A stretch of DNA of 64,000 nucleotides, from NCBI GenBank assembly GCA_008632985.1, contig QPGO01000143.1, positions 62,001 through 126,000 of the forward strand, given 5' to 3'. Shown in pieces: positions 2,171-48,967 of the stretch. A model generated the notes under the pieces. It did no database searches and had not been told where the DNA came from. It was given only the letters and a program-made list of their open reading frames with translations. The position numbers and the translations under genes were made by a program. Each line of letters starts with the position of its first letter. Position 1 is the stretch's first letter. The DNA comes from Psammoneis japonica. Lineage: Eukaryota.

Positions 2171-2689
2171 CTTTTCAACGAGAAGGGAGGAATCAAAAAC
2201 ACACGTAGAGTTAGAAACAATGTTGCTTGTTCGCAATCGTCCATTCATGCATGTGAGAACTGGCCGAGCGCAATCGTCCATTCATTCATGTGAGAACATA
2301 TCACCAGAGATCGTTATAGAACACATTACTGTACCTTCGGCCCTCTTCTGAAAAAAAATGAGAGTTCGAAACTTAAAAAAAGTAGAAAGAGATTTTGATG
2401 AGTGAAAGTTTTCAATAAAGCATACAATCTGAATAGTGGTTACTTTTTGATATGATTGAAAAGAATATTGCACCTCTTAAAAACTTAATATTAATAATTC
2501 AACTTGTTAACGGAATGTCTTCACATCGACGATACATAATATTTTTGCAGTGTTGAATTCGTTTTCATATATATTATAATTTACTTACATCGTAGATTCC
2601 CATAGAGATGTAAAGATTCAATTAAAACGTGAATCGCTTCATTCTGAACATTTTTCATTTTTTGAATTTGAATTGAGAGGGTCCTCGGT

Positions 2690-5600: not shown

Positions 5601-5875
5601 TCCTTGGTCGTTGTGCCATTCCCACATTTCCTCACAGCTGTGCATGGCTGGCTTTGAATTTGATGCCCCACTGTTTTGTTGCTCAGTCAATTCCTTGTGG
5701 CTGCTTGAGGTTGACACTGGCTGCGGCGTCTCTCAGAGGAGGATGCAAGCAGCGCTGTGTGCCAGTGGTTGCTGGGGGGGGGGACAAGAGATGTGTGGGG
5801 GAACTTCATGTGAAACATTGTGTCAACCTGGGACACCTTTGCACTGCTGAACCATGGACAGATTTCAGTTGGTCA
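2690..5875. other. TpA- and CpG-depleted hypermutated repeat/pseudogene domain 1
   Basis: Only about 10 TA dinucleotides in about 3.2 kb, with a strong TG/CA excess. Six-frame ORFs are Cys/His/Gln-rich and almost Tyr-free. Normal composition returns abruptly at about 5878. Confidence 0.85.
3715..4045 (-). mobile_element. MITE-like element, hypermutated copy of the element at 61337..62172
   Basis: The reverse complement aligns with 61337-61465 plus 61974-62172. Degenerate TIRs caacgggaatcactcg / caaatgattcccattg; internal hairpin about 3836-3911. Confidence 0.8.
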
Positions 5876-6088
5876 TCATAGTTACATTGCGTGCCAAACC
5901 ACCACGAAGCTTGTCGTGACGTCATTGCAGTCCCGCACGAGTCGTCGACCAGCAGGCCGCGCACATCGCACAGACCGTCAGTGAAATCTCAAATCGCATC
6001 GAAATGCTTGCTCGTTTCCAGTTTGCTGTGTTGATTTTTGTTGTTGCAAGTCCGACACTTGGCTTTCCATGGGCCATAAGTCATTGCG

Positions 6089-12384: not shown

Positions 12385-13150
12385 AGGGCGACAGCAGCAG
12401 CAGCAGTAGTGACGGCGACATGAGGGACAGCAGCAGTGAGGAGGAGTCAAAGCCATCACACAGTGGCCGCTACAGCAGCAGCAGCAGTGCCGTCCTTCAT
12501 GCTACTTTCTTTCTCGTGGCCATTGCCACTTCCATGGCAGCTGCCCTTGCCCTTGCCCTTGCTGCGCTTGCTCGAGCTGCCACCCTTGCCCTTGCCACTG
12601 CTGCTGCAGTGGCCACTGTGTGATGGCTTTGACTCGGGCGCCAACTCCTCACAGATTGACTCGGTCCTGTCACAGACTGACCATTTTTGTGGAATCTTGC
12701 TCAGTCACACCGCTGCCTTTCATCATCCCAAACTGGAGTTTGCCAAAAGTCTCACTTCCTGCCCCCCAACCTGAACCCCAAACCCCAACCCTGACAGTGC
12801 AAAACTGTTTTTTCTAAATGCTGGGATGCAGAAGTGGCGAAGTGGTGTGTGTTGATTCAGTCATGGGTTCCTGTTTTTGACTTGATCTGTGACGGGCACA
12901 AGCCAATCTGTCAGGGGTGTTTTTTCCTCCAGGAAGAGCTTCAAATGATTTTTCCAAGCTTCTGTTGAAAACATCGCTGAAGGATGTTAAAAGCTGTCCT
13001 TCTTTTGGCAATCGAGACCCACTTTTCTTCATGCCCCACCCCCAACAAACCAGTCGCACAGTGCACATTTTTCATTTCATTGCAAAAAAGACTGGATTCT
13101 CGTGTCTCTCCAGGTGCTGCACATGCAAACATCAATGAACAGAGCACTCT
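12385..13150. pseudogene. Rearranged, hypermutated tandem copy of the 11749..12186 gene
   Basis: 12385-12487 is a direct copy of the mid-CDS, about 12487-12635 is an inverted copy of the 3' CDS, and about 12926-13150 is a direct copy of the stop codon and 3'UTR. TA has been replaced by TG or CA. Confidence 0.85.
12645..12917. mobile_element. Degenerate MITE-like insertion inside the pseudogene
   Basis: Imperfect TIRs cctcacagattgactcggtcctgtcacaga / tctgtgacgggcacaagccaatctgtcagg. It separates two parts of the gene copy. Confidence 0.55.
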
Positions 13151-16100
13151 TGCTTGTGATTTTTTAACCGAAAGCAATGGCACTAAAAATGAAGCACTGG
13201 ACGACAATGTGGGAGCAAACACTGAACAGTCATTTTTTTGCCCATTGCGCACAACACAAAAACAGCTGAGTGCCATCATCACGGTTTGATGAGATGCCCA
13301 TTGAAAAGAAATGATCCACAATTGTGGTTGCTTCCTCGAAACAGAGCACAACAAATGCTGTGTCTGTCTGCATCACATTCCTGTCTCTGTTGGCATGCCA
13401 TTGTGTTGAGTTTGTGGGCTGGCATCTGGCCTTGTTTGCTCTGCTGGTGACTGCAATGGACACCCACCCCTGTTCTGCCTTTGTGACACCCAGATCTTTG
13501 TCAGACTCCTCCTCTCTGGAAACTGAATCTCAGAAATGTGCTGCTGAGGTGTGCTCTGAGCTCTCTCCACCCGGCACCTTGTGACAGGCACTTTTTGCCA
13601 GCCAGCCAAACTTCTTGTTGAGTTGTCGCCACACAAAAAAGCTGATGGTTGTTTCACATGACTCTGCTGATGCACGCATTTGTGACATGATGTGCAAAAA
13701 GCCCAAACCCAAGAAAGTGCATGTTTTGCAAGATGCAAGCTTGGCTGCATGTTGCCATGCAAGCATCTTGCCAATGACAGATGGAGACCCACACAAAGCA
13801 CTCCAAAAAGGGTGCTGCAGTGTTGATGACATGAGCACCTTCTTTTTGAACCTTGTTGCAACAATTTTTCCACAGATTCTCTCACAACATGTGTGCTGCA
13901 ATGGCCTGTGATTTTCACCACTGCCAAAGAAAATGCCCATGTTGTGTGCTGCACTGTCTGCAAAATGAGCATGCTGCATGATGCACAGAGGCATTGTGGC
14001 CCAGCTTGCTTTCTAAGGAGGTTGTCCTTCAGGGCTCAAAACACTGAAGCGTGCCATGCCAGCTCTTTTGGCATTTGGAAAAAGCAGGGGCAAGTGAAGT
14101 GCCCCACTGTGTTTGCTGCTTTCACAGCCCATTTTTCAAAAATGGTCTCTTGTGTGTGTCTTGCTTTGCAGCCACACATGGGGGCAACAAAAGCGTGCAC
14201 AGCACACGAAGCAACAACCTCCCTCTGTCTTGCTCCAGAACAGCACGCAGCTCCATTTGCCATGTTGTTGCTTCTTGGCTTTCTGACAGAGACAGACAGT
14301 GAAGTTCCCACTCACACTTGCTTGGTGGCATGGGGGAACACACAAAAAAAAAGCTGTTGCAAGCTTCTGTTCCCCATGTGCAGCACAAAGTTGTGCCCTG
14401 GGAAGGTCTTCTTTGACAAGTGTGGAGACCAAAACAAAAGAAATCTGTCTCCAAGCAATCCAAACTGCCCCAACTGATGCTGCCAGCAACCAAGGCAGTG
14501 GCATCATGGTTTGCTTGCAGCTCTTACAAACCAGCTTTTGCTGCTCAGTTGTTGACAAAGAAATGACGAATGAGGAGATGCTGTGTTGAAGGCATGCTTG
14601 GCAAACAGCTGGACAGTGGGCCTGTTTGGCTGCAGCCACAACTCATTCAGTTGTGCTCAGGCAAGCCACTCATGATGAAATTCAAAGGAGGTCAATGTTC
14701 TGCTGAGACAGCTTCTTTGACTTTTTTGCAAATGCATGTGTGTTGCCAGAGACATGCGTGCCTTTTTCCTCTGCACTTTGCTGGAAAAGCAGGTTGCTGG
14801 AATTTGCCTGGGACCCTCTGTCCTCTGTCCAACAAAGCAGTGCTTCCGGCACACTTGAGCTGACCCACCTTTGTGTGGCACTCTTTTGCACATTGTCAAA
14901 ATCTTTTGCTGAGCAGCAAGAAGAGCAGCTCTCATGGTCAACATGTGGTCATGGTGGATGGTGGCAGCACTTGCATGTGTGTGGTGTGTGGACAACGCAA
15001 AAACAAATCATGAAACCCCAAGCTTTTGCTTTGCCATCAGAGAAGCAGCACAGCAAGAGAGTTGAGGCCAGTTTGACAATGTTTGGGGCACAGAAGCAAG
15101 GGTGGAATGACACACTGGCGAGGCAGCAACCCTGCCACAGTGCCAGCCATTTTCTCCAAGTGCTCCTGCTGGGCTCACCAAAGCTTTTAAGAACACCATC
15201 GCAAAGCAGCCACCAGCCACACCATGACTGGCCTTGCTGGAAGTGCTCCTCATGTGACTTGCAGCATCACACCAACTTGGAATCAGGCTGGTTGGGATTG
15301 GGGAGGTGGTGGCAAGTGCCAGCAGGGCAGGGCAGGGACGGACGACAGTTCAAAACATGCGTGGAAACCAACTGTTGCACAGACAGACTGCCACTGTGAA
15401 ACCCGCCCCCGTGTGCCCACTGCCCATCATGATGCTGAAGTGTCAATGCCGACAATGGCAAGAACAACAGTGTTGGTTCCAGGCTGTGATGCTGCTCCAT
15501 CTTCAGCACAAAAGCAGAACACACGCACAACAAGACAAGGCTTCTTCATCATGACAAGCCTCCTCGAAGGTGTCCCAGGAGAGCTCATCCAGAAGATTCT
15601 CATCCTTGCAGCTGATGACACAAAAACATTGCAGTGGTGTGAGCAAACGTGCAGAACCCTGTGTCGAGTGGCCTGCAAATGACATGATGTGGAAGCATCT
15701 TGGCAACTGTGGGGAGTTTAGAGAGGATGTCTGACTGCAGTCCAACCACGGTCATGCTTGTGTGGTGAGTGCATGCAACATGATTCGCAGGGAGCAGAGG
15801 AGGGCAACAAACATGCTCACAGACAAGCTTGGTGTGGTTGGATGGCATGATCTCCTCTTCTTGTTTGTTTCAGCCAACCACTGCCGATTCCAGTTTTGAG
15901 GTGACACCATGCTCTGCACATTGCAGAGAATTCAATTGAGGTTGCGGAGGCCACTGGCTTGCACCCAGTTTTGACAAAATGGAATTTTTGGCATTGTGCT
16001 TGTTGTTGCAGGAGTTAAAAGTGGATCCCAATGGGTTGAAGCATGGTGGTCACTTGTTGACTTTAAATTGTGAACTGGAAACACTGGGTGACAACAATGC

Positions 16101-19100
16101 CCTCCTCTGTGAACGCATCATTTGTCGGCTGCCCCACCATGCTCAAGAAGTCAGCAAAGCCAAGGACCAGCATGAGTGCAAAGGCAATGTTGACATGGCA
16201 GAACTGTGATTGCCAAGAAGGAGGAGTGTGGCATTGTGAGCACATCTGATGACAAAAGTGAGTGAGTGAGACCTGTGGCAATGTGCAAGTGACAGCGGTT
16301 TGGCAATTTGAAGATGACGATGTGATTCAACTGATCATGAAGTTGCGTCACAGTGCTTGGTCTGAGGTCATTGGTGTGTTTTCATGCACAGTGCCAACGT
16401 CTCTGCTCATGCTCATGTTGCATCTTGCCAGTTGCTTTGCTTGAGTCTCCATTGCTTTGAAGCATGAGATTGCTGATTGAGCGACACAACATGGGTGCTG
16501 TTTGAATGTTGCATGTTCCGTTTGCTGTTGCTGCTGACATTTCTGGTCTCCTTTGTTTTAGCTCTGGCCAGAAACCAAGGCAATGAGTGCCACCTCTGCT
16601 GGAATGTGTTGACAGCGCCTGTTGCAAAGAGTGCTGTCAGTGTTGATGAGGATGGCCTTGTGGTGAGTTGGAGTTCAACAAGTCGTTCATCATCCCAAAA
16701 GAAAAGTCACGTTGCAGACAGGGCAATCAAAGCATGTTGCAATCACATCAATTGCTCCACATGGGGGGTCTTGAGGATGCTGTCACTGTGTTGACACTGC
16801 CTGCTTCAATGACTCCATTTGACCCAATCAAGGCAAATGAAATCAAACAATGTGTGCATGGATTTAAAAAAATCCAGTGTGAAGAGTGGTGCTGCAAAAG
16901 TGGTCCTTCTTCATTTGGGTGTCAAAGACATGCAAACACATTCATCACACCCCAGCATGTGAACTGCAGAGCTTGCAAGTGGAGTTCTGTGGGCCCAAGT
17001 CACATGATGGAGTGCTGCCCAAGGCTGGAGCTCATTGGCAGGGGGCTTGCATCCACATGATGCATGTCATGTGCTCTGTGCACTTTTTTGTGGCACTGCT
17101 GCTTGCTGCTGTGATGCTTCATGGTGTGCAATGGAGGTGGCAAGTGAGCTTTGGTCCAGTGCAAATGGGTCCAGCAGGGTGTTGGCTCCTCAATTGGGTG
17201 GATGGAGGCAGGCATGCAGGGGAGGGGGGGGCAAACAAGCAGCAGAGCTGCCAATGCTGGGGCCATGTGGGGTGGTCCAAAAAACTCACAATTAAGATTT
17301 GAAGCAAAGGCCAGGAGTCAGGGCATGGCAGGCACACTCTAACTCCAGGTGGGGTGCTTTTGGAGACATTCTAAAAAAGAGCTTGTCAAAAAAGCAGCAT
17401 CACACAGAGAACAAAGATGTGCATGTAATTTTGCCCCACCACGGGGGCAAAACTTGTCAAAATTGAAGGAGGGCTGGTTCAGGTGCACATGTGATCTGTG
17501 CCGGGTGGACGACTGTCCTTAGAGAAGGGAGAGCTCTGTTGCACAAAATTTTGCAATGGCAAACTTGGGCAGATCTCATCATGCAAGTGAAAGAGCAGCC
17601 TGTCAACACCACCTCCTTTTTTAAAAAAGATGCCATTTGCTCTTTTGTCATTCCTGCCAGCTTGAAGATGCCACTGCCAGCTCTCGACAGTCACTGTCTC
17701 AGAGCAGAGCCACCAAGAGATGTGGCACCACCCCTGGCGGGCAGTGTGTGGGGTGTGGGCTTTTTTTCATGCAGCCAATGCCTCTGCCAATGTGGGTTTG
17801 AGCACTGCAGTGGAGCTGATTTGCCACAAACTTGGCCAGTTTTTGTTGTCATTTTGTGGGGGAGAAAAGCATTTGCTTTGAGGATGATGATCCTCACTCA
17901 TGGAGGGCTTTGAGGATGATGACCCTCACTCACAGAGGGCTGCCCAGACTCAATTGCCAAAGGGAGCAACAACCAACCCAACCTCAAGAAATTTCATTTC
18001 TCACTCTTTTTTCTCACTCTTTGTCCTCTGAACAATGGGGTGCAAGAAGAGCAACAACCAACCAGTGGCACTGAAAAATGCAGCATGAGCTGTCATTCAG
18101 TTTTGCTCTTTTCCTCACTCCCCACACCACAGCTCCAGCCCTTGCACAAAGAAGCTGACCACATTTGTCAACACACACACTGCACTCTTGTGCACAGCCT
18201 TTCCCACGAGGTGTTGGCTGCTTCGCACTTGTTTCTTGGCTTCTTCTGCAGGAGAACATCCTTGATTGGGTGCTCAAGAAATGGAAAATGGGTGTTGCAC
18301 AAAAGGCACAGCAAACAATTGTGGTGATGGGACCGCACACCATGTGGTTTTGGAGCCAAGTTCTTCCCACCCAGTTCCTGATGGGCTTCATTGCTGCAGG
18401 AACTTGTGAGTTTGATGACAATTTTCTCATTTGCATCCTCTTGTCAGCCAAGAAATGTGTGCTCAATGGGTTCTTTGCAAACAAGGCCTCACAGAAAATC
18501 TTCACCTTGATGCCGTCATTTTGCATTGGAGGCTCCTTTGGAGTGAAGGCTGAGACTTGACATCCTCCTCCATTGGACTTGTGGCAGCAATGGATTCTCC
18601 ATGCCAGCCAATCATGCAGATGCTAAAAACTGACGCACAAGGCATGCAAAGGCAACCCTGCTTCAGTTTCAGGTGTCATCTCTGTGGGACATTGACAAAA
18701 GAAGGCACATTGGAGCCAAGTGGTTGCACACAAATGCAGCCCCAGACAACCCCATTTCTTGGCTCAAGACCTTGAGCATCAACCAAGGACAACAATGTGT
18801 TTTGAAGGATCATCCTGCTGGCCTGCCCAGCAGCAAACATGCAGCAACCAGCATTCTGGAGGTGTGGGCCTGAATCCCCTTTTCCCTTCTCATTCTCATG
18901 CTTCACATTGAAGAACAAGAAATCTTGTCTGCTTGACCCATCTGGGGGTCTTTGGTTCCAGATGCTTCTCTTGCTCTGATGCCAAGGCCCAGCAGAGTGG
19001 CAACGCATTTCTGCAGAATGGCACTGACAATGTTGTGCTGAGCATTTTCCAATGTGAAGCCATGGGGCATTGTTGTGACCAGCTCTGTTTGAAGTTTCCA

Positions 19101-21141
19101 ATCAACAGCCTCTGGTGAGCTTGTTTCTAAGATGTCTGAGATTTCTGTGCAAAAGTGTGGTGCATGAGAGATGCACTTGTCAAAGATTTCCTGCTGGTTG
19201 AAGACAGAAGATGGTGTGCTCTTGTTTCTGCTGCCAGTGAACCCAGCTGTCTTCCTGGCCAGTGTTGGCAACTGTGAATGCCAAAGGTGTTGGAAGGTTG
19301 TTGAATCTCCTGCAGTCATCACACTTTTGTTTTTTTGCTCCTTGTTTCTGAACAAAAGCCAAAGAATTTCAATGCAAAAAAGCTTGTTTCCCAGGGATGC
19401 CTCAACAATTGCTTCCTTCATTTCTTTCATTCCTGTCAACACCATCCCATTGTTCCTGAAACACTGCTGTGACAATGGCTTGTTGGCAAGATTCAGCTCC
19501 ACCAGACAATCGGCAAGCTCTTTTTGTGTTTTTTGTTCCATCCACACATCTTTGAATGTGTGCTCTGCTGCTTCCTTAAAGTCATGTTTTTGACAAAGTC
19601 TCCAACAGCTGGAAAATGACAACAATGACAACAACACCATCTCCCTCCTTTTTTCTTGTTTCAGCGACCCTGGGTGTGTTTTGTGCAACTTGTGCATGCT
19701 GCACCCACCTTGCCAACATTTCTTGGCCTGTCCATCATCAGGGATTGATGACCTTCTCCTGCATGTGTTGCGAAGTCCACTTGGAAAGACACCAACAGGT
19801 GCAGCACGGTGCTTTTCACAAGTTGATTGATTGCAAGGATCACTCAAATGCAGTGAAGCCATTGCCAGTGCATGCAACAACATGTCCACATTTGTTGCCA
19901 GCGCTGACAAGGTGATCATGATGAGCCATGTTGGATTTAGAGAAGAGGAGCTCAACGGCATTCGTGGCCTCTGGCTGAGGCTGCCTCCTTCAAAAAGATG
20001 GTGCCAACACTTTGTTTTGTGTGCTTGCTTGGTCTTGGTGCCAATGCCTGCTGGTTGTTGTGCATTTCCATCAACCTCAATTAATTTGGTGCCACCTTGC
20101 ACCACTTGTTGCCTGCCAAACTGCCAAACCAGCATCTTCCTTTAATGTGCAATGTGCCTTTGCTCATTTCATGGGCTTGTCCACATTGTTCATTGAGATT
20201 GCTGCAGAGCTGCTGACAAAATGGGAATCATGGAATTGTGCTCAGGATTTCAGAGCAAAATCTTTGCAACAACCTCAAAGGGACACCGCGGCCTTGCAAT
20301 TTCCCCAACACAGCAATTTGGCTCAGATTCAGCAGTGGGCAAAGGAAGTGAGGGATTTGGCACCCATGGTTGATGGCCAATGACCCCTCCTTGAAGCACT
20401 TGAAGGCCACAAGCTGTCAAAGAGAGTGCACAGTGGAGCAAACAGAAGTTGCACACTGGCTCTGCAGCATGCTGCAAGTGGCAGATGTGAAGTGTTGGAG
20501 ATGCATGTCATTGCCTTGTTGGTGGCCATGGCAATGATTGGTCAGATTTTCTTGTTCCTCTCTCCCAAAAAGCATCTTGCAAGGTCTCCAGCAGTTTCAG
20601 AATGTGACATTTCATTGTGTGCTCTTCCAGCTGTTGAGGCTCTTTTGGCGCAACTGCAACAGAAGATTTCACTCCCTTTGGCAATGCCAAATCAGAGGCA
20701 ATGCACTGCATGTCTTGTGGTGGTGCAGTTGTGCCAGGTGGATGAACATTGAGATCACCAGCACTGCAGCAGTGAAGAGATGCCTTTCTGTTGGTCCACA
20801 TTGCTTCCTGGAGATCTGCAAAATTGTCAAAAGGCCTTTTGACCTTGACCTTCTTCTCAAAGTTGTCACTGGCACAGACTGTCACACCACACCACATCTG
20901 CTGCCATGGTGGTCCAATGGAGTCCAGCATGGTGTGGCAGAAAAGTGAATTTCTGCTTCATCTTTGACACAAACTTAACAACACATGACAACAATGGTCT
21001 CTGCCATTTGATTCTTTGTGGATGATGATGCACAAAACCAAAACCACTCATCACTCTGTTTGTCTCATCTCTTGGCTTCAAAAAGGCCCCAAAACCAGAG
21101 CATCTGTGTGTCTGAAAGACCACCCCAACTTTTAAAATTTC

Positions 21142-21143
<2 letters not shown>

Positions 21144-21183
<40 letters not shown>

Positions 21184-21265
21184 CGTCGTCGCTGTTGTCA
21201 TCACTGTTGTCGCTGTTGTTGTCGCTGTTGTCGCTGTTGTTGTCGCTGTTGTTGTTGCTGTTGTC
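21144..21265. repeat. (TTG)n / (GTC,GCT,GTT)n trinucleotide microsatellite
   Basis: About 13 pure TTG units followed by degenerate gtcgctgtt units. Would read as poly-Asn/Asp/Ser on the minus strand. Confidence 0.9.
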
Positions 21266-24200
21266 TACAAGTGCATGGATGAAATGAATTTTTTTCAAAA
21301 TTCACAGAAAGGAAGGGCTTCACTGGCATTGGTGACACCAAATTGCACCACACAGTGTCAGTGGGTGGTGCTGCATCCTTGAACCATGGGGCACCACAAA
21401 CTGAGTTGGCATGTTTTTTTTTTCTTCTTTGGCATTCAATCAGTGGCAGTGGCTCATGACACAACAAAGTTGGTGGTCATGCACAGAGTCAAAAGACAAA
21501 ACAGATGCCTGATTGACACAAGGCCAACCACACCCCCCACAGGAGGAGGCTTCTCTTGCCAGCATGCTGTCACCCACTCTCTGCTTGGGCTCATCCACCA
21601 CAGCATTCCAAGTGTTCAAGTTTTTCATCTGTTCATGGCAAGAGAGACACCATGTTGCACTTTCAATGTTCCTGCTGTCTTGTGCTCTGTTTGGCCCATC
21701 ATTGCACGCAACAGTCTTGTTGGTCTTCCACTTCTTGTTGTGATGATTGCCTGTGTCATTTCAAACAAGCACTCAATTTTGCCAGGGGGGAAAGTTTGTC
21801 AACCAGTTAAGATGATGTCACTTGTGAACTCAACAACACACTTGGATGAGTGGAGTGCAGGCAGGGACCAGCCCTGATGCACCAACACAACCACAGTCTT
21901 TTTTTCACCATGCAGGGCAGCAACAAAAAGTTTCTTTGCAAAGTGCAAGCAACTGCATTTGTCTTTCATTGTCCAATGCTTCCAAAAAGAGCTGAGCTGC
22001 AACCACAGTGGGGCCAACAGGGAGCTGGGAGTTTTGACCATCAGATTGTGCAAAGCAACTCTTGTTGTGCTGAGGGTCTCCAGCCATTGTGAAGTTTCTT
22101 CATTGAACACTTCTGCATTTGACAAAACTCTGACTGACTTTTGCATTCACTGCCACTGTCAAATCTGCAAAAAGACAACAACAGTCCATGTTTTGTGTGT
22201 GCCAGCTTTTTGTTGACTTCTGACCACCACTGCACTGCTGTTCATGGTGCACACTGGATGTTGTTGCTGCTGCTCAGTGGCCATTTTAGAAAAGTCTCAG
22301 AAAAGCCCCTGAAGTCATGACAGAGCTGCAAGGTGCAAGTGCAGCTTGCCAGAGCCATCGCTGGATTGCTTGCTGAGCTGCAGCTTTGTTCTTTGTGCAA
22401 TGCTCCCAAGCCAATTGGAGAAGCATCAGATGCAAGCACCACATGGGGTTGCCAAAGATTGTGCCCAACTCTGAGCCACCCCCACTTGCCTTGTGTGCCA
22501 CACATTGTGCTGCCACATTTGCAAGGCTTTTTGAGAGTGGAAAAGTTGGGCTGAAGGGGCTGGTTGCAACAGGATCAATCAGCACAAGAAAAGGGGGATG
22601 CAACCCCACACCAACCATTGCCATGCAAGGCAGCTCCATTGTGCACGTTTTCACAAGGACAGAGACACTTGTTTGCAGCCACCAGCTGACCTTGGGTCCA
22701 ATGAATCTGCAGCACATCCCAGAGCCAATTTTGGGATCTGGAAGAATCATCACTGCATCAACTTTCAAAAAAGTCAGCCAGTGTGCCACCAGCAAGACCA
22801 CCTAAGTCTTGAGTGGCAACACAAAAGTTTGGCAGGCTCTTGAGTCAGAAGAATTTCACACCCATGTCTCTGTCATGGTCATCACTGCTGTTTTGTTGCC
22901 CCCCATTGTCACCACCCATGTGACACCACCTCCATCAACCCTGCTGCTGCCACTGCTTTTACCACCACAGCCATTGGCTTGCTGTCTCCCTTGGAACTTG
23001 TCAGCCAAGATGCGGCTGCCTTGGTTGACAGCCACAGTTTTGAGTGGGCTGGGTCAACTGGGAAAATGCTCCATTTCAGGCAGTGCTGAAGCTTGGTTGG
23101 TTCCGTCAAGAAGCTGTTGCTGTTGGTCAGGTTGCTCAAATGTGGGAAGCCCTGCTGCACATTGTGAGAACAAAAAACACTGCAGAGTGCACTTTAAATG
23201 AGTCTGCCTGCCATGTTGTGGCTTGCTGTCTCATGAGCAAAATGGTTGCTGCAAAAGATTGGATTTGAAGAAAGAGCCATTCGGCTCATGCCATGTGATG
23301 TGATCTGGAGTTGCAAAAGGCTGGAGTGCTGGCCCAGTCATGCTGCTGGCCTGGATGCAAGAAAGAAATGGACAGATGTGACAATGAAAAAAAGATTGCA
23401 AACCAAGCAACACAATGTGACAAGACATGAGTGTTTGCTGCAAAAAAGATGTGAGCTGTGTCTCAGCTCATGCCAATCTGAGAGGTTTGCCAGACATGGT
23501 CTTGAAAGACTTGAAGACAAGCAATCTGACAGCTCCCACACTCTCTTCTCAGAGATGGAGCTGCCCCTCTTTTGGAGGTTTGCTTGCTCCAGTTTCCAGC
23601 AACAACAGTGGAATTGGCAAACAAAAACAGCACACAAAAGCAACAGTTGACAACAGATCCTCGAGCTCATTTTGATGTCAGTGTTCAAATTGTTGCCAGC
23701 AAAATCACACTGCAACCCAAGTCAAGAGAACTTGGCTGGTGGGCTCACCTTGATGGTGAGATTCTTGTGGCTGACAATCTACAACATGGAACGAGCCAAC
23801 TGTGGCAGCTGCAAAGAGTCAGAGTGTTTCGGCCATGTTGTCAGGCACACAGCAAGCAAACTGACAAACAAGAGTGGAAAGAAATGTGCTCCAACCTGTT
23901 CTCTGGGTTGAGCAGCGAGTTTCACATTTGTGACTGAGTCAGTCATCAGGATCATCAAATGCTTCCTGCCCATTGTTTTGCACTCACAACACCCATGTGC
24001 ATCCAAGGAGGATCCAGTCCCTTGACTGGTGTGCATTTGCTGGAGAGAAAGCTTTGGAGCGAGTGTGTTTGTCTGCAGTGCTGTCAGACTCGCTCCATGG
24101 TGTTGACAATGCTGGCAGATGATGAGTCAGGCCAAGCAAGTGCATGATCAGTGGGTCACATGAGAGTGTCACAGAACAGCAAACTGCGGCACTTTGTGCT

Positions 24201-24899
24201 TGGGCTGCGCTTTGGCTCCATCTGCTGTGTGTTGTGTTCGTGCTCTAAACTTGGCATCTTTTGGGGTTGCCACCACACATGATGTTTGGTTGACATGAAG
24301 CAACTGAAGCTGGACTGCCTCCAATCAAAATCACATGCAACCAATCGGACCAGAAGCCCACACCTTTTCTTGCTCAGAAGCACTGCCCGCCAGGGGGTGC
24401 TTCGACTCAAGCGTGTGGGGGCTCTCAACCCCGCTGTGAGTGCTCCTCAGTGCGCAGGTTCAAACCATCCATTTGACTCTTTGATGTGTCTTTCTTGCTC
24501 TTTCTGTGTGCAATCAGATGCAGACTATTTTTCAATCTTGTTGGGCCAAGCAATTGCAGATTTGGCCACAGTCTCTGTCATTTTCAAAGTTTGTTTTGCA
24601 CACTGTGTGATCAAATCCTTGCTGCAGCATTGTTTTCCTCCAATCCACTGCCCACCAAGATGAAATGAGATGTTCCATAACCAAGAAGCGTTCTGCACCT
24701 GACAAGATTGGTGGCACTCATCTTGCATTTGATGAAAGATGGCAATGTGGAACGAAGCAAAGAAAGGGAAAAGTGAAAAGAGGTTTGTCACAAAGCCTTT
24801 AACTTATGGGCACTGCGCAATCCCAGCAGTCCGCGCCGTAGACTTCTACGTGTCTCTCACTGTCGCGTCATCGTTGGGGGTTGGGGGCCATCATGGGCT

Positions 24900-27779: not shown

Positions 27780-29340
27780 AGAGAAAGGGATGGATGGCGG
27801 CATTTTGCATCCAATGCAAATGACTTTGTGTTAAATGATCTTTTCTTTCCGTGCTGGAGAGTCATCGCTGGCACAGAGAAATTGTGTGGGCCAGAGGTCA
27901 AGGAAAACAATGTGTGCGCCCCGACTTCCAGCACACCGCAAGTTTGCAGGAAGCGACTCTTGCAGTGCTGCCCCTCACCAAGAGCCATGTCATTGCACGT
28001 GCAGAGTGAAGTGCGCTGGGCAAGCAGGGCTTCACCTGGCTTGCAGCAGCTGAAGTTGTCAGCACCTGGATGCCGCTGCTCTGCAGTGCATTGGTGCGCT
28101 GCAGCTGGTGCTAAGATATGATCAAATGCCTTGTGTGCACACTCTTTGGAAGAAGAGTGATTTTCTCAATGAAAAGCACAGGTGCCCCTGCCAATGACAC
28201 AGCGCATGCACAGCATGAGGGCAGCTGCAGCCGCTTTCTGCCTTGTGTGATGACACAACTGGTGCTGCCAGGCTGTTGCACAAGAGCTTGTTTTTTGCAT
28301 GTGCGCTGTTTGCCTCTGTGTGTCACATGGTGCGTGATGTGCTCCAGCCCCACCCCAGCTGAGCAGGACTGAGCATGTGACATGGGCCCACAAAGCTCCC
28401 CGTTTGCGAGCTCTGTGCAGCTCAGCAATGCATTGGTGTGGCCAATGTGTGCATTTGTCCTCAATGCCCAAATGAATGACTGTGTTTGTGGTGCAACCAC
28501 ACCTCTCAATGCTCAAAGTTTTTGAAGCAAATTCATCAAGAATTGCGCTGTTGTGTGCAAAAAAATGTCAGAGTTGTCGAGCAGATGACCCAACAACTGC
28601 TTTGTGAAGTTGCACCAAAGTGCCAGCAAAGTCATGCAAAACACATGTGCATGACATGCAGCATGTCTCAAGAGCTTGTCAATGTTGCAGCTCAGCAGCA
28701 TGAGGTCCCACCAAGAGCTGGAACACACCACATGCATTTCTGCACACAGCAGCACTTTGCAAAATTGTTCGCAAGCTCCGCAGCTGTTTTGCAAAGCCAA
28801 AGGCCATTCATTGTGTGGCCACTTTTGAGAACAAAAATCAGCTCTTTGGGCATGTTCTTCAATTTCTGAAGAAGAGAGAAAAAAGAAACAACAAAAGTGG
28901 CACACACGTTTGTCAAGCATGTGGAAGAGCGGGGCTGGGCGACAGCGTCATTTCTCTGCCTCTTTTCCTGCCAGCATTTGTTGGCTTGCTTGCTGCAATG
29001 CAAGTTTGCTGCAGGGCTTGCATGTGGGATTCTGTGGGCCCAATGTCACATGGAGTCCCCTGACCAATGGCTGTTGGATCGCATGCATGCGTTCTTGTTG
29101 TGTGCTGCACGTGCCCTCCTCTTTTGCTCTGTGTGCTGCTCTCTTTGGAAGCCAGAGAGGGGGCTGGCTGAGGGCTTGAATGTGAACCTGCAGTGCTTGG
29201 GTGGGGACACTCACACCCACCATGACACTTGGTCAGTCTGTCATGGAGCAGCACCCAGCATGGGACAATTGTTTGTTGAGTCTTCCATCAAACCCACAGG
29301 GCACCAGGGAGGCACAGACCACTCTGTGCGGTGTGTGCGT
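27780..29340. other. TpA-depleted hypermutated domain 3
   Basis: Almost no TA between about 27840 and 29339 (only around 28112-28118), with a TG/CA excess. Ends about 150 bp before the bestrophin start codon. Confidence 0.85.
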
Positions 29341-29490
29341 AGCGCGGGGCGTGGTGTCCCGATCTGTGCTCTGCGCGGCCCAGCGGCACAAGCCCGCGCG
29401 ACAACCGACGGTTTCACGATGGCCATCAGCCATCACTGTTCACGACGCCACAGCACCGCCATGAGTTGTAGAGTTAGAGGAAATCCAGCC

Positions 29491-40687: not shown

Positions 40688-41262
40688 GGTGTTTTGAGAA
40701 GTTGTGAAAAAGTGGGAGACTTGTGATTTTTCTCGTTTTACAGGAAAATGCTCCGTAGAACAGAGAGCCAAAGTGTGTGAATGTGTGAGTGTCAGAAACA
40801 AGAAGTTCTGTTCATGTATGTGCTCCCATGAGTTGCTTTGTTCTGTTTTTTCATGCCGTTGCGGTATTGGTGTGGGGGACCAAAGCTCTGAAGCTTTTTT
40901 CTCAAGACCACTTTGTCGAAATTACATAAAGGAAGCTTTTGATGTGAATCTCGTAATTATAGAAACGACGATTGTGCTTGAAGATATGGTCATTATGTCG
41001 TTTCTTATCGCGATCGATTGTTGCGTTGATGGTTGGGATGATGTTCTTTGTTTAACAGTAGTCATTTCAGCGTCTGTCCAGAACTTGACATCTAAATATT
41101 TCAGTGTAATTGGAATGTCTATGTTGTGACCATATTTAGGGGGGAGGTCATCTGTTCGTCTGTCCAAAATCCATGATTGCCTAATTATTTCATTGTGATG
41201 GAAATGTCCCTTTTGTGACAGCTTTTTGCTCGAGCGAAGATAGAATGTGACTCCAGACTGGT

Positions 41263-41444
41263 TGAATGAGATAGGCACATGTACTCTATGGCCGAGTGTG
41301 CCCTCTCTGATGTGTGTACATTAACTAACGCATTAGACATTCAAGAAGCCGTTAGAAGTCAGTTCCGATCAGCGATTGCACTGATCGGGTCTCTTCTCGG
41401 TTCTCTCACAACTTTTGTCAAGTCATCTCAAGCTAGATCTTGCA
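41263..41444 (+). repeat. 5' LTR
   Basis: tgaatgag…tcttgca; 15 mismatches to the 3' LTR by manual alignment. Confidence 0.95.
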
Positions 41445-41890
41445 CTGCAATTGCAGTCGTTGTTGTGGCTTGTTCATTGCATTGTCAACTTTATGACAAC
41501 GCGAAGAGTGTCATCGAGAAGAGAGAAAATTTGTTTGCGAGCTCGAGCAGAAAATTTCATTCGAAGTAGATCAGAATCGCAGTGCAATTGCACTCGTGAA
41601 ATTGGCGATTCGGAGCAGCGGTTGTTTGAACTCGAAGCTCGTGTTGCCACCATTGAATTCGTCATTGTTTGATTGTTGATTGTTCTCGTTGTGTGGATCA
41701 ACTGGGAACGCCTTGTTTTGTTTGTCTTTTGTGGATTGTTGATTGTTTGATCGCTGAAATTGTTCATCGCCATGTGTCAAGAAGCCTTGGAGAAAGCCTG
41801 TGTTGAGCATGAGACCAAATTCGTGGACTCTGAATTGCAGGAGGTGAAGCTCACTCAAACCTTTTTGATTGTGGCACTAAACTTTCAAAA

Positions 41891-42952
41891 ATGTGTCCTG
41901 TTTTCACAGGAGAGCATGGAATTGAATCATTGTTGCATGTGGAGGACAGGTTCCGGAAGGTGGCAAGACAGCTGGATTGTGATGCCGGAACAGAGTTGTT
42001 TGATGCTTTCCAGGATTGTCTCCAAGGTGCTGTGGAGGTGAAATGGCAGAACATTGCTGCGGGTGTCCAACAGAATCAACGGACGGCAGCTTGATTTGAT
42101 CAGGCTGTCTTGGCCTGTCATCCACGCTGCGTGAAACTGACAGCTCGTGACACAATGAAGATGCATTTGCCTGCTTGCAAAAAGCCTTGCTCAGCAGAAT
42201 CTGAAACTCACATTGATCGCATGGAAACATTGTTCCATTGTGCTGGCCGTTTGCCTGGAGCCGTTCCTGAACTTACAGAGCAGGAGCAGAAAAATGTCAT
42301 CTTTTGTGCCTTCCCTTTGACCTGGCAGCAGTCCTGCATTCGTGCGGGCAAGAACCTTGTCACGGATTCTATGGCAGACATCCAAGCCTGCATGAGCAAC
42401 GAGAAGGTGTTCGCCAATGGTCAAGACAACAAGAAACGCAAGTCCAACAATGGCAATGGAGGGAACTCCAGCAACAAAAAGGGCAGCCGTGACAAGAAGG
42501 ACAACAAGGGCCAACCGAAAGCAAATGATCCATGTCCGGTCCCGTGGCACCATGGAAGGCACACATGGGGCCAGTGTTGTGACAACCCAAACAATCCTGA
42601 CTGTCGTGGGCCTCAGAACCGTGGCGGTCGAGGAGGAGGCCGTGGCGGTGGAGGTCGTGGCGGAGGTCGTTTCCAAGGAGGCCGTGGTCAAGGCCATGGA
42701 GGCGGTGGATGCTTTGGTGGTCATGGCAACCAGAACCAAGGAGGTCGTGGTGCCCATCATAACAACAACAATGGACATCAGAACAACAATGGCAACCAAG
42801 GTGGTGGTCAACATTGTTGTGGTGAAAACAACAACCATGGAGGCCAAGGACAGGCCAACGGATGTGCTGCTCAAGCAGACAATGTGAACAATGACAACCA
42901 GGCTCGAGAAGCTTCTCGTGGTGATGTGCACCATTTTGACATGATCGGATGA
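41891..42952 (+). pseudogene. Gypsy gag relic (start approximate)
   Basis: Zn-knuckle-like CPVPWHHGRHTWGQC and RGG/Asn/Gly-rich tail; in-frame stop at about 42092. Confidence 0.7.
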
Positions 42953-43274
42953 GGCCCTCCAAGATGCGGAGGTGTGGTGAGGTTTCAGCCAGATGGGCAG
43001 TTTCCTCGGCAGTTCTGAGAAGAAGGAGCTGAGTGCTCCAGAGCTGAATGCTCCCAATTGCCTGTGAAAGAAGCATTTGTTGATGAAAATGATTGTGTTT
43101 TGCCTGAATGAAATGATGAATGTTTTGCTTTTGATTGTTTTGAAAATCCTGACGAATTGTTGCCTGTTGAATTTGAAAATGCTGCAGAAAATTACATGAA
43201 TGAAGAGGGGGTGTGTTTGATCAAGACGCATTTGAACACAACATTCCTCTCCCCAAAATGAACTTGCAAGTCTC

Positions 43275-46200
43275 GTGCACCGCGTTGGTCCCATCTACAC
43301 TGCTTGTTGCAAAATCAATCCAACAGATGAGTCGAGTCGAGTGATGCGTGTTTTGTTAGATTTGGGTGGTTTTCACACTGTGATCTGTCTCAAGTTTCAC
43401 CTCGAGGAGCCGTGCCATCTGTTGATGAACATGGAGTCCGAGCTTTTCAAACCATGGCAGGTCCTTTCCAATCGGGTCATTGGGTGGCCTTAAACTGGGA
43501 GGATTGACGGCTGTGTGGCTCACGCATTCGATGCTCCGTGTGCGCATGACATCATTTTGGGTCAAGATTTCTTGGACAAGATTGGTCTCAACCTGAGCTA
43601 CGATGCAAGGATGCTGCGATGGCTGGACCGTGTGATCCCAATGAAGGAACCTCGTCATTGGTCCAAATCCTGCAATTGGCATGTGGCTTTAGACCGAATG
43701 GATGAATTTGATGAAGATTGCAAAGACGAGTCGGGCTGTGGGTGCGACGACGGATGTGACACCTGCACGCTCGACACCAAGCATGAAGCAACGAATCCAG
43801 TGGAAGTGGTTCGGAACTTGGACCATCTCACGGAAGAACAAAAGAAGAAGCTGTCAGCGGTGTTGGAAAAATGTTCAACTTTGTTTGACGGAACGTTGGG
43901 GCACTGTCCTCATGAAAAGGTGCACCTTGAAGTGGACGAAAATGCTGTTCCACATCACTCAAAACTGTTTCCTGTTGCTCGAGTTAATGAAGAAGCGCTC
44001 AAAAAGGAATTGAAGCATTCAGTGAATCTCGGCACACTTCGACCATGTGGACCTGCGGAATGGGCAGCCGGTGCCTTTGTTGCTCCAAAGAAGGACGGAC
44101 GAGTGCGATGGGCATCCGATTTTTGGGAGCTCAACAAGGTCCTCAAACAGAAAGTGTGTCCTTTGCCAGTTGTTCAAGATGTGCTGCAGTGGAGAGCGGG
44201 CTACAAATTCTTCACGAAACTGGATCTCACTGTGCTCTACTGCAATTTGGAGCTGGACGATGAAAGCAAGGAGCTCGCTGCGATTGCAACTCCGCACGGG
44301 AAATTCCAGCATTGTCGCATGGCCATGGGATTAAAGCCAGCTCCAGATGTTGCTCAGTCCATTGTTGAAAAGATTCCACATGGTTTGGATGTTGAAACTT
44401 ACATTGATGACATTGGCGCGTTTGACACTGACTTTGATTGCCATCTCTCTTGTCTTGACAAGGTGCTGCATCATCTCAAGGAGAATGGTTTGAAAGTCAA
44501 TCCATCAAAATGCGAGTGGTGTGTTCAAGAAACCAATTTTCCAGGGCATTGGCTTGCTCCAACTGGTGTTAAACCATGGAAAAAGAAGGTCGAGGCGATC
44601 CTGCGAATGCAACCTCCACGGAACACTACACAGCTCCGATCGTTTCTCCGTGCAGTGACCTGCTGTCGCAACATTGTGGCCTCGCCGTTCTCACCTGCTT
44701 GCACCTCTGACTGAATTGACAGGCAAGAGTCAGTTCCAATGGACAGAATCATGTCAGAAAGCATTCGAGGAGATGAAGGCAGTGATCACGGCAGAAGCGT
44801 TGATGGCCTGCCCTAACCACAACCCACCTTTCCATGTCTGCACCGATGCATCAGACTGCCAGATGGGTGCCGCTGTCATTCAAGATGGCAAACCTGTGGC
44901 GCACTGGTCTAAGAAGCTCTCGGCGGCTCAACGCAGCTGTTCAACAATGGAGAAGGAACTCCTGGCCGTCGTCATGTGCTTCAAGGAATTTCACTCAATG
45001 TTGCTCGGTGCTGAAATCACTGTTCACACTGATCACAAAAACCTCACCTTTCGCACTTTGAATGTGCAGCACGTCCTTTGTTGGTGACTGTTCCTCAAAG
45101 ATTTTGCACCTGCATTTGCGCATGTCGAAGGCAAGGACAACGTGCTTGCCGACTGTTTTTCTTGTCCACCACGCATGGATCTGCCTTCGGAGGGAAAGAG
45201 CCTTGGGCTGAGCAGCAAACGCAAAGGAAAAATTGTTCATTTTGAAAAGTTGGATTCCAGGGAACTGAGCAGGGCCGAGGAAGAGGAAGATTTGGAGTTG
45301 GGCGCTTGCAGGTTCAAATGTTGCCGTGCTCCTGTTGATCCTTCTGATGAGTCTCACACCGCCTTTTCCTCTCTGCTTGACGAGCCCAAATTGTTTGAGT
45401 GCTTTTTGAATTGCCCGACACTGGACGAAATGCAGAATCCCACTGAGACACCAAGGATGCAACAGTTCCAGTTCGAAGACCTCCAACTGAACCAGCAAAG
45501 ACAACAAAATCCGCAGCAGTTTGTGGTCAAGATTGTGAACCATCATCCCCTGATTTGTTGTCGTTTGCATCTGAATGATCCACCTGGAGCCTGGAAAATT
45601 TGCGTTCTTGCTGCGTTGTTGCCGGATGTCATTGCGTGGCATTGTTGTGCATTGGGCCATTGTGGAGTCGTGCGATTGCATGAAAGTGTTTGGACTCACA
45701 TGTGTCATCCTGCATTGCGTCGACGTTGTAATGAATTTGTTTGCGACACATGTCAACGATTTAAACAACTGGGTCCTGGACATGGAGAATTGCCTCAACG
45801 TCAAGCGCCATCAGCTCCATGGATGGAAGCAGCAGTTGATCTCATTGGACCGTGGAAAATGCCGATTCAAGATCAAGAGATTGAATTTAGCACTCTCACT
45901 TGCGTTGATGCTGTCACTGGATTGACTGAACTCGTGCGCACTGACAACAAAACTTCTCAGCATGTGACCAACAAGTTTCGCAATCTTTGGTCAGCTCGTT
46001 GTCCCAGACTGAATCGATGCATCCATGACAATGGTGGAGAATTCATTGGTTGGGAATTTCAAATGCCACTAAATCAAGCGGGCATTGCTGATGCACCGAC
46101 GACATCTCGAAATCCTGCAGCCAACTCCATTTGTGAGCGAATGCACCAGACGGTGGCCAACATCTTGTGCACTGTGGTTGTCGCCAACCCACCTTTGAAT

Positions 46201-46600
46201 GTTCAACAGGCTGAGTAGATTGTGGACGATGACCTTGCTGCAGCCTCTTGTGCTTTGCGATGCTCCCACTCAAGGTCTGTGGGTGTTTCAAGTGGAGCTC
46301 CAGTGTTTCAGCGTGATGTGATTTTGGACCTGCCTGTTGTTTCCGACCTTGCTGCAATGCAAGCCAACCGACAAGTGTTGATCGACGAGAACCTGCGACG
46401 ACAGAATGCGAAGCGCCATTCCTGTGATTATCTGGTTGGTCAAGATGCGTTGGTCAAGTCGGTGGATCCTTCAAAGTTGGAAGAACGAGCCCATGGTCCG
46501 TTTCGAATTGTGCAAGTCCACGCCAACGGGACTGTTTCAGTGCTGTGAGCACCGCACGTCATTGAGCGAATTAATGTTCGCCGCGTGGTGCCGCATCGGA
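43275..46600 (+). pseudogene. Gypsy pol relic (protease, RT, RNase H, integrase)
   Basis: VLLDLGG and DIILGQDFL (PR); KKDGRVR, TKLDL, TYIDD (RT); TDASD, EKELLA, TDHKNL (RNase H); H-H-C-C, VDLIGP, HDNGGEF, ERMH, GPF (IN). Carries stops and frameshifts. Confidence 0.9.
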
Positions 46601-46712
46601 GTTGAGGGTTTCTTCCCAACGTCTGGGTTCCCTTCTCCATGCGCATTGGGTTTGAATTTTAGTCAAGTGGTTCCAATGGTGCGCGTGTTCCTTGCGCCAT
46701 GGAAGGGAAGAG

Positions 46713-46894
46713 TGAATGAGACAGGCACATGCACTCTATGGCCGAGTGTGCCCTCTCTGATGTGTGCACACTAAATGATGAATTGGATGTTCAAGAAGCC
46801 GTCAGAAGTCAGTTCCGATCAGCGATTGTGCTGATCGGGTTTCTTCTCGGTTCTCTCACAACTTTTGTCAAGTCATCTCAAGCTAGATCTTGCA
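46713..46894 (+). repeat. 3' LTR
   Basis: Preceded by the PPT and followed by TSD CTGGT. Confidence 0.95.
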
Positions 46895-47426
46895 CTGGTG
46901 CTCCTAAAGTCACTGACAGCACTACATAGAGAATAGTCTCTAGAGCTACAGCAGCCAGACAAATCCACTGGTAGAACATTGGCTCCCTAGAGTAGAATTT
47001 GTAGTCTGGTCCTCTCTAGAATACAAGGCGCTATGTATGCTGCGGCTTTTTTGAACGCGCCGAAGTGAGCAGCAGAGGAATGACCAACCTGGCAACATGT
47101 ATCCATTGTATTCAATGGTACAGTGACTGGCTTCCGAGACTAGAGGGCTTACTACTACTTGTGCAACAAATGCTGTAAGCTAAAAACAAAGCATTGGACG
47201 CTACAAAATTTCAGGCGATAGCAGCTGATTCTTGCTAGAATGAAAGCTTCGCACCCGATCGAGCCAACTGTCCGTTCATGGCCTATCATCAAGGAAAATT
47301 CTACTAGATTTCAATCAAAAAATAATTTGACAAAACAAATTACAACAAACACAGCACTTGTCGAGACCAACGTTATAATAACTTGTGTTTTGTTTTCATA
47401 TTACAACAACAACAACTCCTCTCTCA

Positions 47427-47932
47427 TTATGCCCCCGCTTGACGAGCTCTCTGTTGGGCATAGACTTCCTTAATGTCTTCTCGTTTTTTCAAAGCACGCT
47501 TGTGCGAACCAAGACGACGCTTGGCAAACTTGTAAATACGCTTATCGGCCGAACTGCCTCCGGTGGAAATCATATCGAGAATACGGCGTTCGTACGGACT
47601 CAAACCAGCCACCTCACGGGCAATCTCGCGACACAATGCCGTGCGTTTGTTTTGTTTCTAAAAAAAAAAAAAGAAAGAAAAGAATGAGTAATCAATTTGA
47701 GAGAAGAAGTAACAATCATGCATTCGCCGTGCTTTTGCCGTGTTGAGAATTAGGTACTGAGTGCACCGCGAAACAAAGCACGCATCGACAACAACAAGGC
47801 CATGATGATGATTCGATTCCATTCATTTTCAACAACACTTACTCCCTTGCGAGCAGAAGGCTTGGCGGGACGTTCCCGTTCCTCCGTCACGTGGCCACTG
47901 TTGGCGCCCTTGGCGTATCCTGATCGTGCCAT
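47427..47932 (-). CDS. RPL36: 60S ribosomal protein L36 (eL36); intron 47842-47658
   Basis: GANSGHVT…PSARKG | KQNKRTALCREIAREVAGLSPYERRILDMI…KFAKRRLGSHKRALKKRE. Confidence 0.95.
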
Positions 47933-48748: not shown

Positions 48749-48967
48749 ATTTTTTACAATGTAAAGAAATTTATTATTTGGAAATTGAAGAATGAATGTA
48801 CTGATTATTGTTTTGAGTTGTTGTGTCAACTTGAGATATCAATAGACTGGCCAGTGGATAGAGTGCTTGTAACTTTTTAGTAGTTTTTACTTCCAGGCGC
48901 CCAGAAACACCTAGCGTGACCTGCAGCATACCTACAAGCGGCGAGAAGACAGGATACGTACACCCAA

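Follow-up and report, generated by a model that had tools for sequence, protein, structure and literature searches.

A full-length Ty3/Gypsy long terminal repeat (LTR) retrotransposon, spanning positions 41258-46899 with its target-site duplications, was found in a 64,000-nucleotide stretch of the diatom Psammoneis japonica (contig QPGO01000143.1 of assembly GCA_008632985.1, positions 62,001 to 126,000; hereafter the window, numbered from its first letter). The copy is dead, and its present sequence is probably the work of a host process that converted A:T to G:C pairs at TpA dinucleotides, on both strands and after integration. The change was made in place, is confined to a domain, depends on the neighbouring bases and outpaced both background substitution and CpG decay by far. 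By the marks of an intact or active copy the element fails, with one frameshift, two in-frame stops (TGA at 45085 and TAG at 46216) and most of the conserved tyrosines of Pol gone. Its four Pol open reading frame (ORF) pieces cover without a gap the profile of 25 full-length Gypsy Pol homologues, in the order reverse transcriptase, RNase H and integrase (Table 1). Among named proteins, the closest Pol relatives (about 44-53% identity) were from two diatoms, Cylindrotheca closterium, with the source name 'reverse transcriptase domain-containing', and Cyclotella cryptica, with one CCRYP gene model. A scan of the window with the 25 homologues (tblastn) and with the element itself (blastn) revealed no second copy of the element and no further Gypsy Pol.

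The depletion of TpA was measured as the ratio of observed to expected counts (o/e). Over 41445-46894 the TA o/e was 0.091 (32 TA in 5450 bp), compared with 0.574 outside the depleted blocks of the window, a depletion of about six-fold, and the two transition products were raised together (TG o/e 1.61, CA o/e 1.48). The Gag and non-coding parts were as depleted as Pol, with 0-4 TA per 500 bp along the element, and the translation of the 285-aa Gag-like ORF contains no Tyr at all. The root of the tyrosine loss is thus the loss of a dinucleotide and is not specific to tyrosine, and it reaches beyond the Pol segment 43515-46548 in which a preliminary description, made from the letters and ORF translations, had noticed it.

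That description had claimed that the conserved tyrosines of Gypsy reverse transcriptase, RNase H and integrase were systematically converted to Cys or His, and all eight peptide strings it quoted are present in the stop-to-stop translations of 43494-46548. The comparison with intact Gypsy Pol proteins that it proposed was carried out on the 18 profile columns with Tyr in at least 50% of the 25 homologues, where the element was found to have Cys 8, His 4, Phe 3, Tyr 2 and Trp 1 times. The claim stands, since 12 of the 18 columns hold Cys or His, against 0-2 such replacements per homologue in leave-one-out controls (16 of 382 when summed by hand over the 25). Conserved columns other than Tyr were retained at 151 of 220 (69%), and two near-invariant Tyr columns (Tyr in 23 of 24 and 17 of 18 homologues) are both Cys in the element. 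Similarly, a pairwise comparison with the relative P0014 gave His 13, Cys 12, other residues 10, Phe 5 and Tyr 3 at the 43 reference tyrosines. Tyr accounts for 0.48% of Pol residues (5 of 1033) versus 3.59% in the homologues, Cys for 5.13% versus 1.57% and His for 4.45% versus 2.82%; the corresponding codon counts are TGT 30, TGC 22, CAT 29 and CAC 17, with TAC 4 and TAT 1. Additionally, conserved columns show I>V 6, L>P 3, V>A 2 and M>V 2 times, replacements that fit the expectation for TA>CA and TA>TG. Four results support the further claim that both changes occur, and hence A>G on both strands: the homologue counts, the dinucleotide profile, the LTR differences and the other copies of the family.

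The timing of the change can be read from the LTR pair, whose two members (182 bp each) differ at 15 positions. Six of these are TA in the 5' LTR and CA (4) or TG (2) in the 3' LTR; four more form two adjacent pairs reading CA versus TG, for which the ancestor was TA or CG with opposite strands changed; one is CG versus TG, and the remaining four are of other kinds. With six of nine TA sites changed versus four unrelated differences in 182 bp, the per-site rate of TA change is estimated at about 90 times background. The LTRs of one insertion are identical at integration and now differ by TA loss; the change was therefore made at the DNA level, in place, after integration and on both strands. 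The first ~90 bp of the 5' LTR retain every site lost in the 3' LTR, including two GTAC and one ATAG. The left edge of the depletion lies from 41354 to about 41450 and the right edge within 46830-46905, with normal TA density back 11 bp past the end of the 3' LTR. The mutated domain is sharp-edged, opening within the 5' LTR and closing with the last base of the 3' LTR or shortly before it. In the standard scheme of LTR retrotransposons the transcript spans R-U5-body-U3-R, and in this one element the mutated tract would coincide with that transcript footprint. A TCAGTT at about 41358 resembles the initiator element of diatoms and could be a lead to the transcription start.

A similarly one-sided loss was found at a local duplicate without LTRs, whose copies lie about 765 bp apart and span the edge of the largest of three further depleted blocks in the window (Table 1). 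Between the outside copy (12165-12380) and the inside copy (12927-13150), TA had been lost to TG or CA at eight sites inside and at none in the reverse direction, while CpG had been lost at six sites in the inside copy versus one the other way. The duplication is an old one, as indicated by 12 transversions and 11 other transitions between the copies. In all three blocks TG and CA reach 1.8-1.9 each, and the edges are as sharp as those of the element.

The TA sites that survive are not a random sample. The four depleted blocks together hold 83 TA in 22,773 bp and the rest of the window 1715 in 41,227 bp; the contexts TTAA and CTAA/TTAG account for 49 of the 83 survivors versus 197 of the 1715 outside, whereas ATAC/GTAT, GTAC and ATAT account for 1 of 83 versus 519 of 1715 (Fisher tests). 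Among the 17 TA dinucleotides remaining in Pol, a pyrimidine precedes the T in 15. The same preference was met in environmental loci described below: RTAY sites (R, purine; Y, pyrimidine) made up 2 of 105 TA sites in the depleted parts of L025 and L026 versus 2734 of 9788 in 47 normal loci, and 5 of 84 in the half-depleted locus L008 against the 28% baseline. Since RTAY sites are already nearly gone in L008, the preference is kinetic, with RTAY consumed first and YTAR last. On the sense strand this makes Tyr codons (TAY) hot targets, with TAA and TAG as cold ones. The preliminary description had also argued that a TA target would inactivate proteins efficiently because every Tyr codon and two of the three stop codons contain it. 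The missense part of this argument stands, and the part concerning stop codons does not: TAG is changed to TGG or CAG, and TAA to TGA or CAA, so that the change generates no new stop codon and only turns TAG and TAA into sense codons or TGA, leaving missense as its sole route of inactivation.

Ordinary decay of CpG by deamination of 5-methylcytosine resembles the TpA change in its products (TpG and CpA) and, within the window, in its blocks and edges. It differs in acting on C, in being slower in the element (CpG o/e 0.683 versus TA o/e 0.091) and in being absent from L008 and from the protein P0015 despite advanced TA loss there; the two are therefore separate processes, even though they have common domains in the window. 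CpG decay accounts for the arginine losses, as only 5 of 17 conserved Arg columns were kept and, with the exception of Lys (2), the replacements (Gln 3, His 3, Trp 2 and Cys 2) are its products. The TGA stop at 45085 occupies a column with Arg in 14 of 18 homologues, with R>H and R>C changes beside it, and to judge from the letters it too looks like a product of CpG decay.

Other copies of the family were examined in the contigs of run X1, which matched the element in 3100 pieces at 85% identity or more and its flanks in single contigs, and the family is therefore multi-copy. Differences between copies were transitions in 615 of 692 cases (summed tallies), and one base is absent at 44672, close to the frameshift, in four contigs of other copies. 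The preliminary description had suggested looking for an unmutated family member; among the 40 variable places listed of 718, other copies have TA at no fewer than seven sites that read CA or TG in the element, and CA-versus-TG adjacent pairs occur at least three times.

The searches returned 395 relatives, and Tyr content was checked in 380 Gypsy relatives, 12 host-gene homologues being left out. Normal Tyr was found in 377 of the 380, which goes against the possibility, raised with the original observation, that intact relatives carry Cys or His at the same columns. The other three (P0015, P0079 and P0108), from different families, are almost free of Tyr and, by their sequences, look like further mutated copies and not active ones. 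P0015 has no Tyr in 699 aa; compared with its intact relative P0005 (67% identity), the 32 reference tyrosines were found to be His 16, Cys 12, Phe 3 and Val 1 times, together with L>P 7, T>A 7, I>V 6 and K>E 5, and 41 of 46 Arg were retained. A search of genome contigs with P0015 gave one relative, of normal TA content, on a contig labelled as a bacterial metagenome-assembled genome (MAG), and a search of viral contigs with the first Pol piece gave no match. Public contigs supplied 51 loci, 50 of them on metagenome contigs and one on a contig labelled as a bacterial MAG; the Tyr>Cys/His pattern was found in four (L008, L020, L025 and L026), the other 47 having 0-2 Tyr>Cys. L026 shows a depleted block beside a normal flank. 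In L008, TA o/e over the whole locus of 3250 bp is 0.39 with CpG o/e of about 1.0, and 30 of 34 reference tyrosines are replaced (Cys 13, His 5), so that this locus could serve as a natural half-way intermediate for estimates of rate and context. No LTRs were found in L025 and L026 either by repeat search or by purine/pyrimidine-recoded alignment (score 29, equal to the best shuffle). Diatom-type Gypsy Pol was also seen in L001 (labelled as an uncultured Desulfobacterales MAG) and in the protein P0342 (named as from a Flavobacteriales MAG), most likely through eukaryotic contamination of these bins.

The nearest known system is that of the chlorarachniophyte Bigelowiella natans. According to the main text of a recent preprint, 230 of the 231 new mutations that an integrated giant virus and a virophage acquired in its mutation-accumulation lines were TpA>TpG/CpA, arising at about 1000 times background in only some of the lines; low-TpA coding sequences of that genome are enriched in reverse transcriptase and DDE domains, and an ADAT2/3-like DNA adenine deaminase was proposed, without proof (Mettrop et al. 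2026, bioRxiv 10.64898/2026.01.13.699255). As far as that text goes, the two cases are alike in the change of A:T to G:C at TpA on both strands (seen here in the LTRs, the duplicate with losses of 8:0, the Tyr>Cys/His replacements and the raised TG and CA), in discrete blocks with normal flanks (four blocks here, one of them demonstrably mobile) and in a long-term footprint of low TpA and high CpA and TpG. They differ in the host (Rhizaria versus a diatom), in the targets (giant virus and virophage at TpA o/e ~0.45, versus an LTR retrotransposon and three blocks at 0.03-0.09) and in the kind of evidence, de novo occurrence having been shown there and fixed differences having been compared here. 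Diatoms, flanking context and LTR comparison have 0 occurrences in the preprint's main text, and our literature search found no report of a TpA-loss signature in diatoms or other stramenopiles. We read the P. japonica element as a case of the same kind, extending it to a diatom and to LTR retrotransposons with a putative enzyme; the RTAY preference, the asymmetry of the LTRs and the fact that no stops can be created go beyond what that main text describes.

The process is best set against repeat-induced point mutation (RIP) of fungi, which changes C:G to T:A mostly at CpA, raises TpA, creates stops and recognises duplicated sequence. Both are defence-like, consist of transitions only, are defined by a dinucleotide, act on both strands and can drive a transposon to saturation, leaving compositional blocks with sharp edges. 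The polarity is reversed here, as TpA is destroyed, G+C rises and no stops arise, and RIP itself was rejected on the TpA depletion, the CpA/TpG enrichment and the codon logic given above. In addition, RIP should affect both LTRs alike, whereas here the beginning of the 5' LTR was spared and the same stretch of the 3' LTR was changed; such unequal treatment of identical repeats argues, from one element, against recognition by homology.

The most probable course of events would then be that about nine tenths of the TA dinucleotides were turned into TG or CA by a host process after insertion. This process would act in place and repeatedly on the duplex DNA of silenced mobile elements until the sites are near exhaustion, its agent being presumably an enzyme aimed at silenced mobile DNA. 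The most likely candidate would be a nuclear deaminase that converts adenine to inosine in DNA, a proposal as unproven here as it is for B. natans. The enzyme might be directed by nascent RNA, or by a chromatin domain set up by transcription and silencing, a suggestion drawn from one element. More broadly, and only tentatively, diatoms and perhaps the protists of the SAR group (stramenopiles, alveolates and Rhizaria) in general might possess a natural RTAY-preferring A:T>G:C editor of double-stranded DNA. Nascent or small RNAs would guide it to silenced mobile elements, where it would act on the part that is transcribed, between the start site of the 5' LTR and the last base of the 3' LTR. Such a genome defence would resemble RIP with its polarity turned round, would disable proteins by missense only and would strike Tyr codons hardest among coding targets.

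Several points weigh against this account. The link to a transcript footprint comes from a single element. Both CA-versus-TG pairs of the LTRs may derive from CpG, in which case the left edge is fixed only to 41354-41450, and the direction of the LTR differences was taken from the depleted interior and the other copies, without an outgroup LTR. Run X1 may come from the same sample as the window assembly and would then not be independent. The context baseline consists of genic DNA or other elements, whose tetranucleotide content may differ from the original one. Only the Gypsy block is demonstrably a mobile element, the mobile or foreign nature of the other three being assumed. The enzyme is putative, and the RTAY preference is unlike the anticodon-loop substrates of ADAT2/3, which have a pyrimidine at position 32 and mostly a purine at position 35. 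Finally, the main target in B. natans is, according to the preprint's main text, transcriptionally silent, which fits targeting by chromatin better than by transcription (bioRxiv 10.64898/2026.01.13.699255).

Among the alternatives, the one that survives best keeps the same in-place, domain-restricted process and changes its chemistry: a dioxygenase of the TET/JBP type would make 5-hydroxymethyluracil (5hmU), or a further oxidised base, at TpA, and mispairing with G would give T>C. Because TA reads the same on both strands, the result would look no different, so that thymine-based and adenine-based chemistry are inseparable by sequence and the strand symmetry (TG 1.61 versus CA 1.48) suits either. 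In dinoflagellates, 5hmU replaces T preferentially in TpA and TpC. It is a non-cytosine modification found on repeats in another SAR lineage, and in Amphidinium carterae, where a TET/JBP homologue makes it, it is enriched on transposable elements and helps to silence them (PMC11572971); it is a possible T>C route at TpA. There, nevertheless, it is described as an epigenetic mark and not a mutator, the available part of that article reporting no TpA-loss footprint; 5hmU in diatoms was not met in our work, though no specific search for it was made, and the sole experimental precedent, B. natans, is attributed in the preprint's main text to adenine deamination, also without proof. Thymine chemistry is regarded as a rather improbable alternative to adenine deamination.

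It is less probable still that no dedicated enzyme was involved and that a replication or repair bias, or spontaneous damage, slowly strips TpA together with CpG from heterochromatic, methylated DNA. TpA steps are structurally unusual, and the losses of TA and CpG have common block edges in the window. Such slow attrition is nevertheless difficult to reconcile with a TA loss far ahead of CpG loss in the element and occurring without CpG decay in L008 and P0015, with a 3' LTR changed at TA sites at about 90 times background, or with the strong tetranucleotide preference. In B. natans, moreover, the main text of the preprint describes a process that is episodic and roughly 1000-fold over background.

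Editing before integration, either of the RNA (ADAR- or ADAT-like) or of the minus-strand cDNA (APOBEC-like) with insertion of the mutated copy afterwards, is very unlikely. Editing of retroelement intermediates by APOBEC3 and ADAR is well known in animals, and these deaminases produce context-dependent transitions that cripple retroelements, which resembles the pattern here; in the standard scheme, edits of the minus strand after plus-strand strong-stop could even favour the 3' LTR. These enzymes act before integration and on one strand, of single-stranded cDNA or double-stranded RNA, whereas here both strands were changed in place and the LTRs differ. Editing of RNA predicts identical LTRs, and 6-8 TA sites differ between them; editing of cDNA marks one strand, and both products were found in the 3' LTR and in Pol. 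The depletion is moreover even along the element, the duplicate without LTRs has the same one-sided loss, and three blocks without a recognisable retroelement protein are also depleted. This type of editing was therefore rejected, neither a single-strand signature nor identical LTRs having been found. The same preprint's main text adds that the B. natans mutations occur in place in integrated DNA and that ADAR prefers U before the edited A (bioRxiv 10.64898/2026.01.13.699255).

An artefact, whether modified bases miscalled in sequencing or polishing or many copies collapsed in assembly, is scarcely credible, although the family is multi-copy with flanks in single contigs and no sequencing platform is recorded for the source data. 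The X1 contigs contain 61% of the sampled 31-mers of the window, 490 of the 3100 pieces on the element are at least 99% identical to it, and the flanks agree (2 letters differ in 39000-41312 and 7 in 46868-49000). The signature was also found in unrelated assemblies (P0015, P0079 and P0108; L008, L020, L025 and L026), at least one of which (L026) bears a NODE-length-cov contig name, in our experience typical of short-read assemblers, and miscalls would yield neither a frameshift and stops nor a difference between the LTRs. Just as implausible is a native family composition in which low TA and Cys/His are normal, for example as an adaptation escaping a TA-directed defence: at some of the listed sites most copies also read CA (at 42427, T was read in 528 of a depth of 2538), but this copy is dead, its near-invariant Tyr columns are gone, its non-coding LTRs changed likewise after insertion, other copies retain TA and nearly all the screened relatives have normal Tyr. 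Both readings were rejected.

Table 1. Positions and properties of the mutated Gypsy copy and of the other TA-depleted blocks in the window.
Feature	Position	Strand	Remarks
Target-site duplication CTGGT, left copy	41258..41262	+	Read from sequence; repeated right after the 3' LTR
5' LTR, 182 bp, TG...CA	41263..41444	+	Direct repeat of 92% identity, by alignment; holds 9 TA, the first ~90 bp retaining theirs
Internal region with near-total TpA loss	41445..46712	+	TA o/e 0.09, CpG o/e about 0.69
Gag-like ORFs (41834-42094 and 42095-42952)	41834..42952	+	Gly/Arg/Asn-rich tail
Pol piece 1, protease-like region and reverse transcriptase	43494..44714	+	RVT_1, E 4.2e-17; profile positions 397-785; closed by the frameshift near 44672
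Pol piece 2, RNase H	44659..45087	+	RT_RNaseH_2, E 4.7e-27; profile 784-921; closed by in-frame TGA 45085-45087
Pol piece 3, integrase	45088..46218	+	rve, E 0.0021, below the Pfam cut-off; profile 923-1231, E 6e-82; closed by in-frame TAG 46216-46218
Pol piece 4, integrase C-terminal part	46219..46548	+	Profile 1234-1341; AHGPF where the Y.GPF motif is expected
Polypurine tract GGAAGGGAAGAG	46701..46712	+	Read from sequence; abuts the 3' LTR
3' LTR, 182 bp, TG...CA	46713..46894	+	By alignment; lacks 6 of the 9 TA sites kept by the 5' LTR (4 to CA, 2 to TG)
Target-site duplication CTGGT, right copy	46895..46899	+	Read from sequence; TA density normal from 46905
Second depleted block	2650..6070		TA o/e 0.051, CpG 0.282
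Third and largest depleted block	12510..24790		TA o/e 0.044, CpG 0.149, TG 1.85, CA 1.84
Fourth depleted block	27840..29460		TA o/e 0.034, CpG 0.393

The Gag-like ORFs gave no match in a Pfam search. Their tail (42600-42950) is a long low-complexity stretch rich in Gly, Arg, Asn and Gln, and a spurious ORF of 367 aa lies in this region on the opposite strand. For the three other depleted blocks, Pfam was searched with 14 stop-to-stop ORFs and, in a second round, with 104; the two matches returned were both far under the cut-off, and no recognisable domain was found. As they lack TAA and TAG, these blocks contain many long spurious ORFs, the longest of 412 aa. At 60514-61378, TA is sparse (o/e 0.16-0.22 per 500 bp) and CpG mildly low; this could mean a minor or incomplete target of the process, or simply a gene poor in TA.

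The host genes of the window are long uninterrupted ORFs. The ORFs at 47427-47657 (minus strand) and 48359-48748 (plus strand) read as ribosomal proteins L36e and L34e and lie 0.5-2 kb from the 3' end of the element; both have normal TA and CpG, so that the mutated domain does not extend into the neighbouring genes. A bHLH-PAS ORF (Pfam HLH and PAS) is located at 52838-54112 on the minus strand, a domain combination of diatom circadian regulators and one of the hints at a diatom host. The best named match of a 1032-aa host ORF was from Seminavis robusta (43%), and its best match overall was an unnamed protein (78%). Taken together, these genes and the Pol relatives point to a diatom host, probably of the raphid pennate type, and not to Bigelowiella.

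To our knowledge, fungal RIP and the APOBEC/ADAR systems of animals are the only cases of targeted mobile-DNA hypermutation that have been worked out in detail. A TpA-specific version that increases G+C was first reported in 2026, from one chlorarachniophyte and its integrated viruses, as given in the main text of the preprint (bioRxiv 10.64898/2026.01.13.699255). A natural adenine-type editor of duplex DNA would, if real, be relevant to the base-editing field, and the RTAY rule and the LTR asymmetry offer handles for locating the enzyme and its guide. Mutated elements retain long Tyr-free ORFs that end up annotated as proteins, and they look far more diverged than their real age would allow, so that transposon dating and family assignment are distorted. 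The near-saturated signature on a diatom LTR retrotransposon and on its environmental relatives suggests a widespread system in major marine primary producers, one that shapes the transposon load of diatoms.

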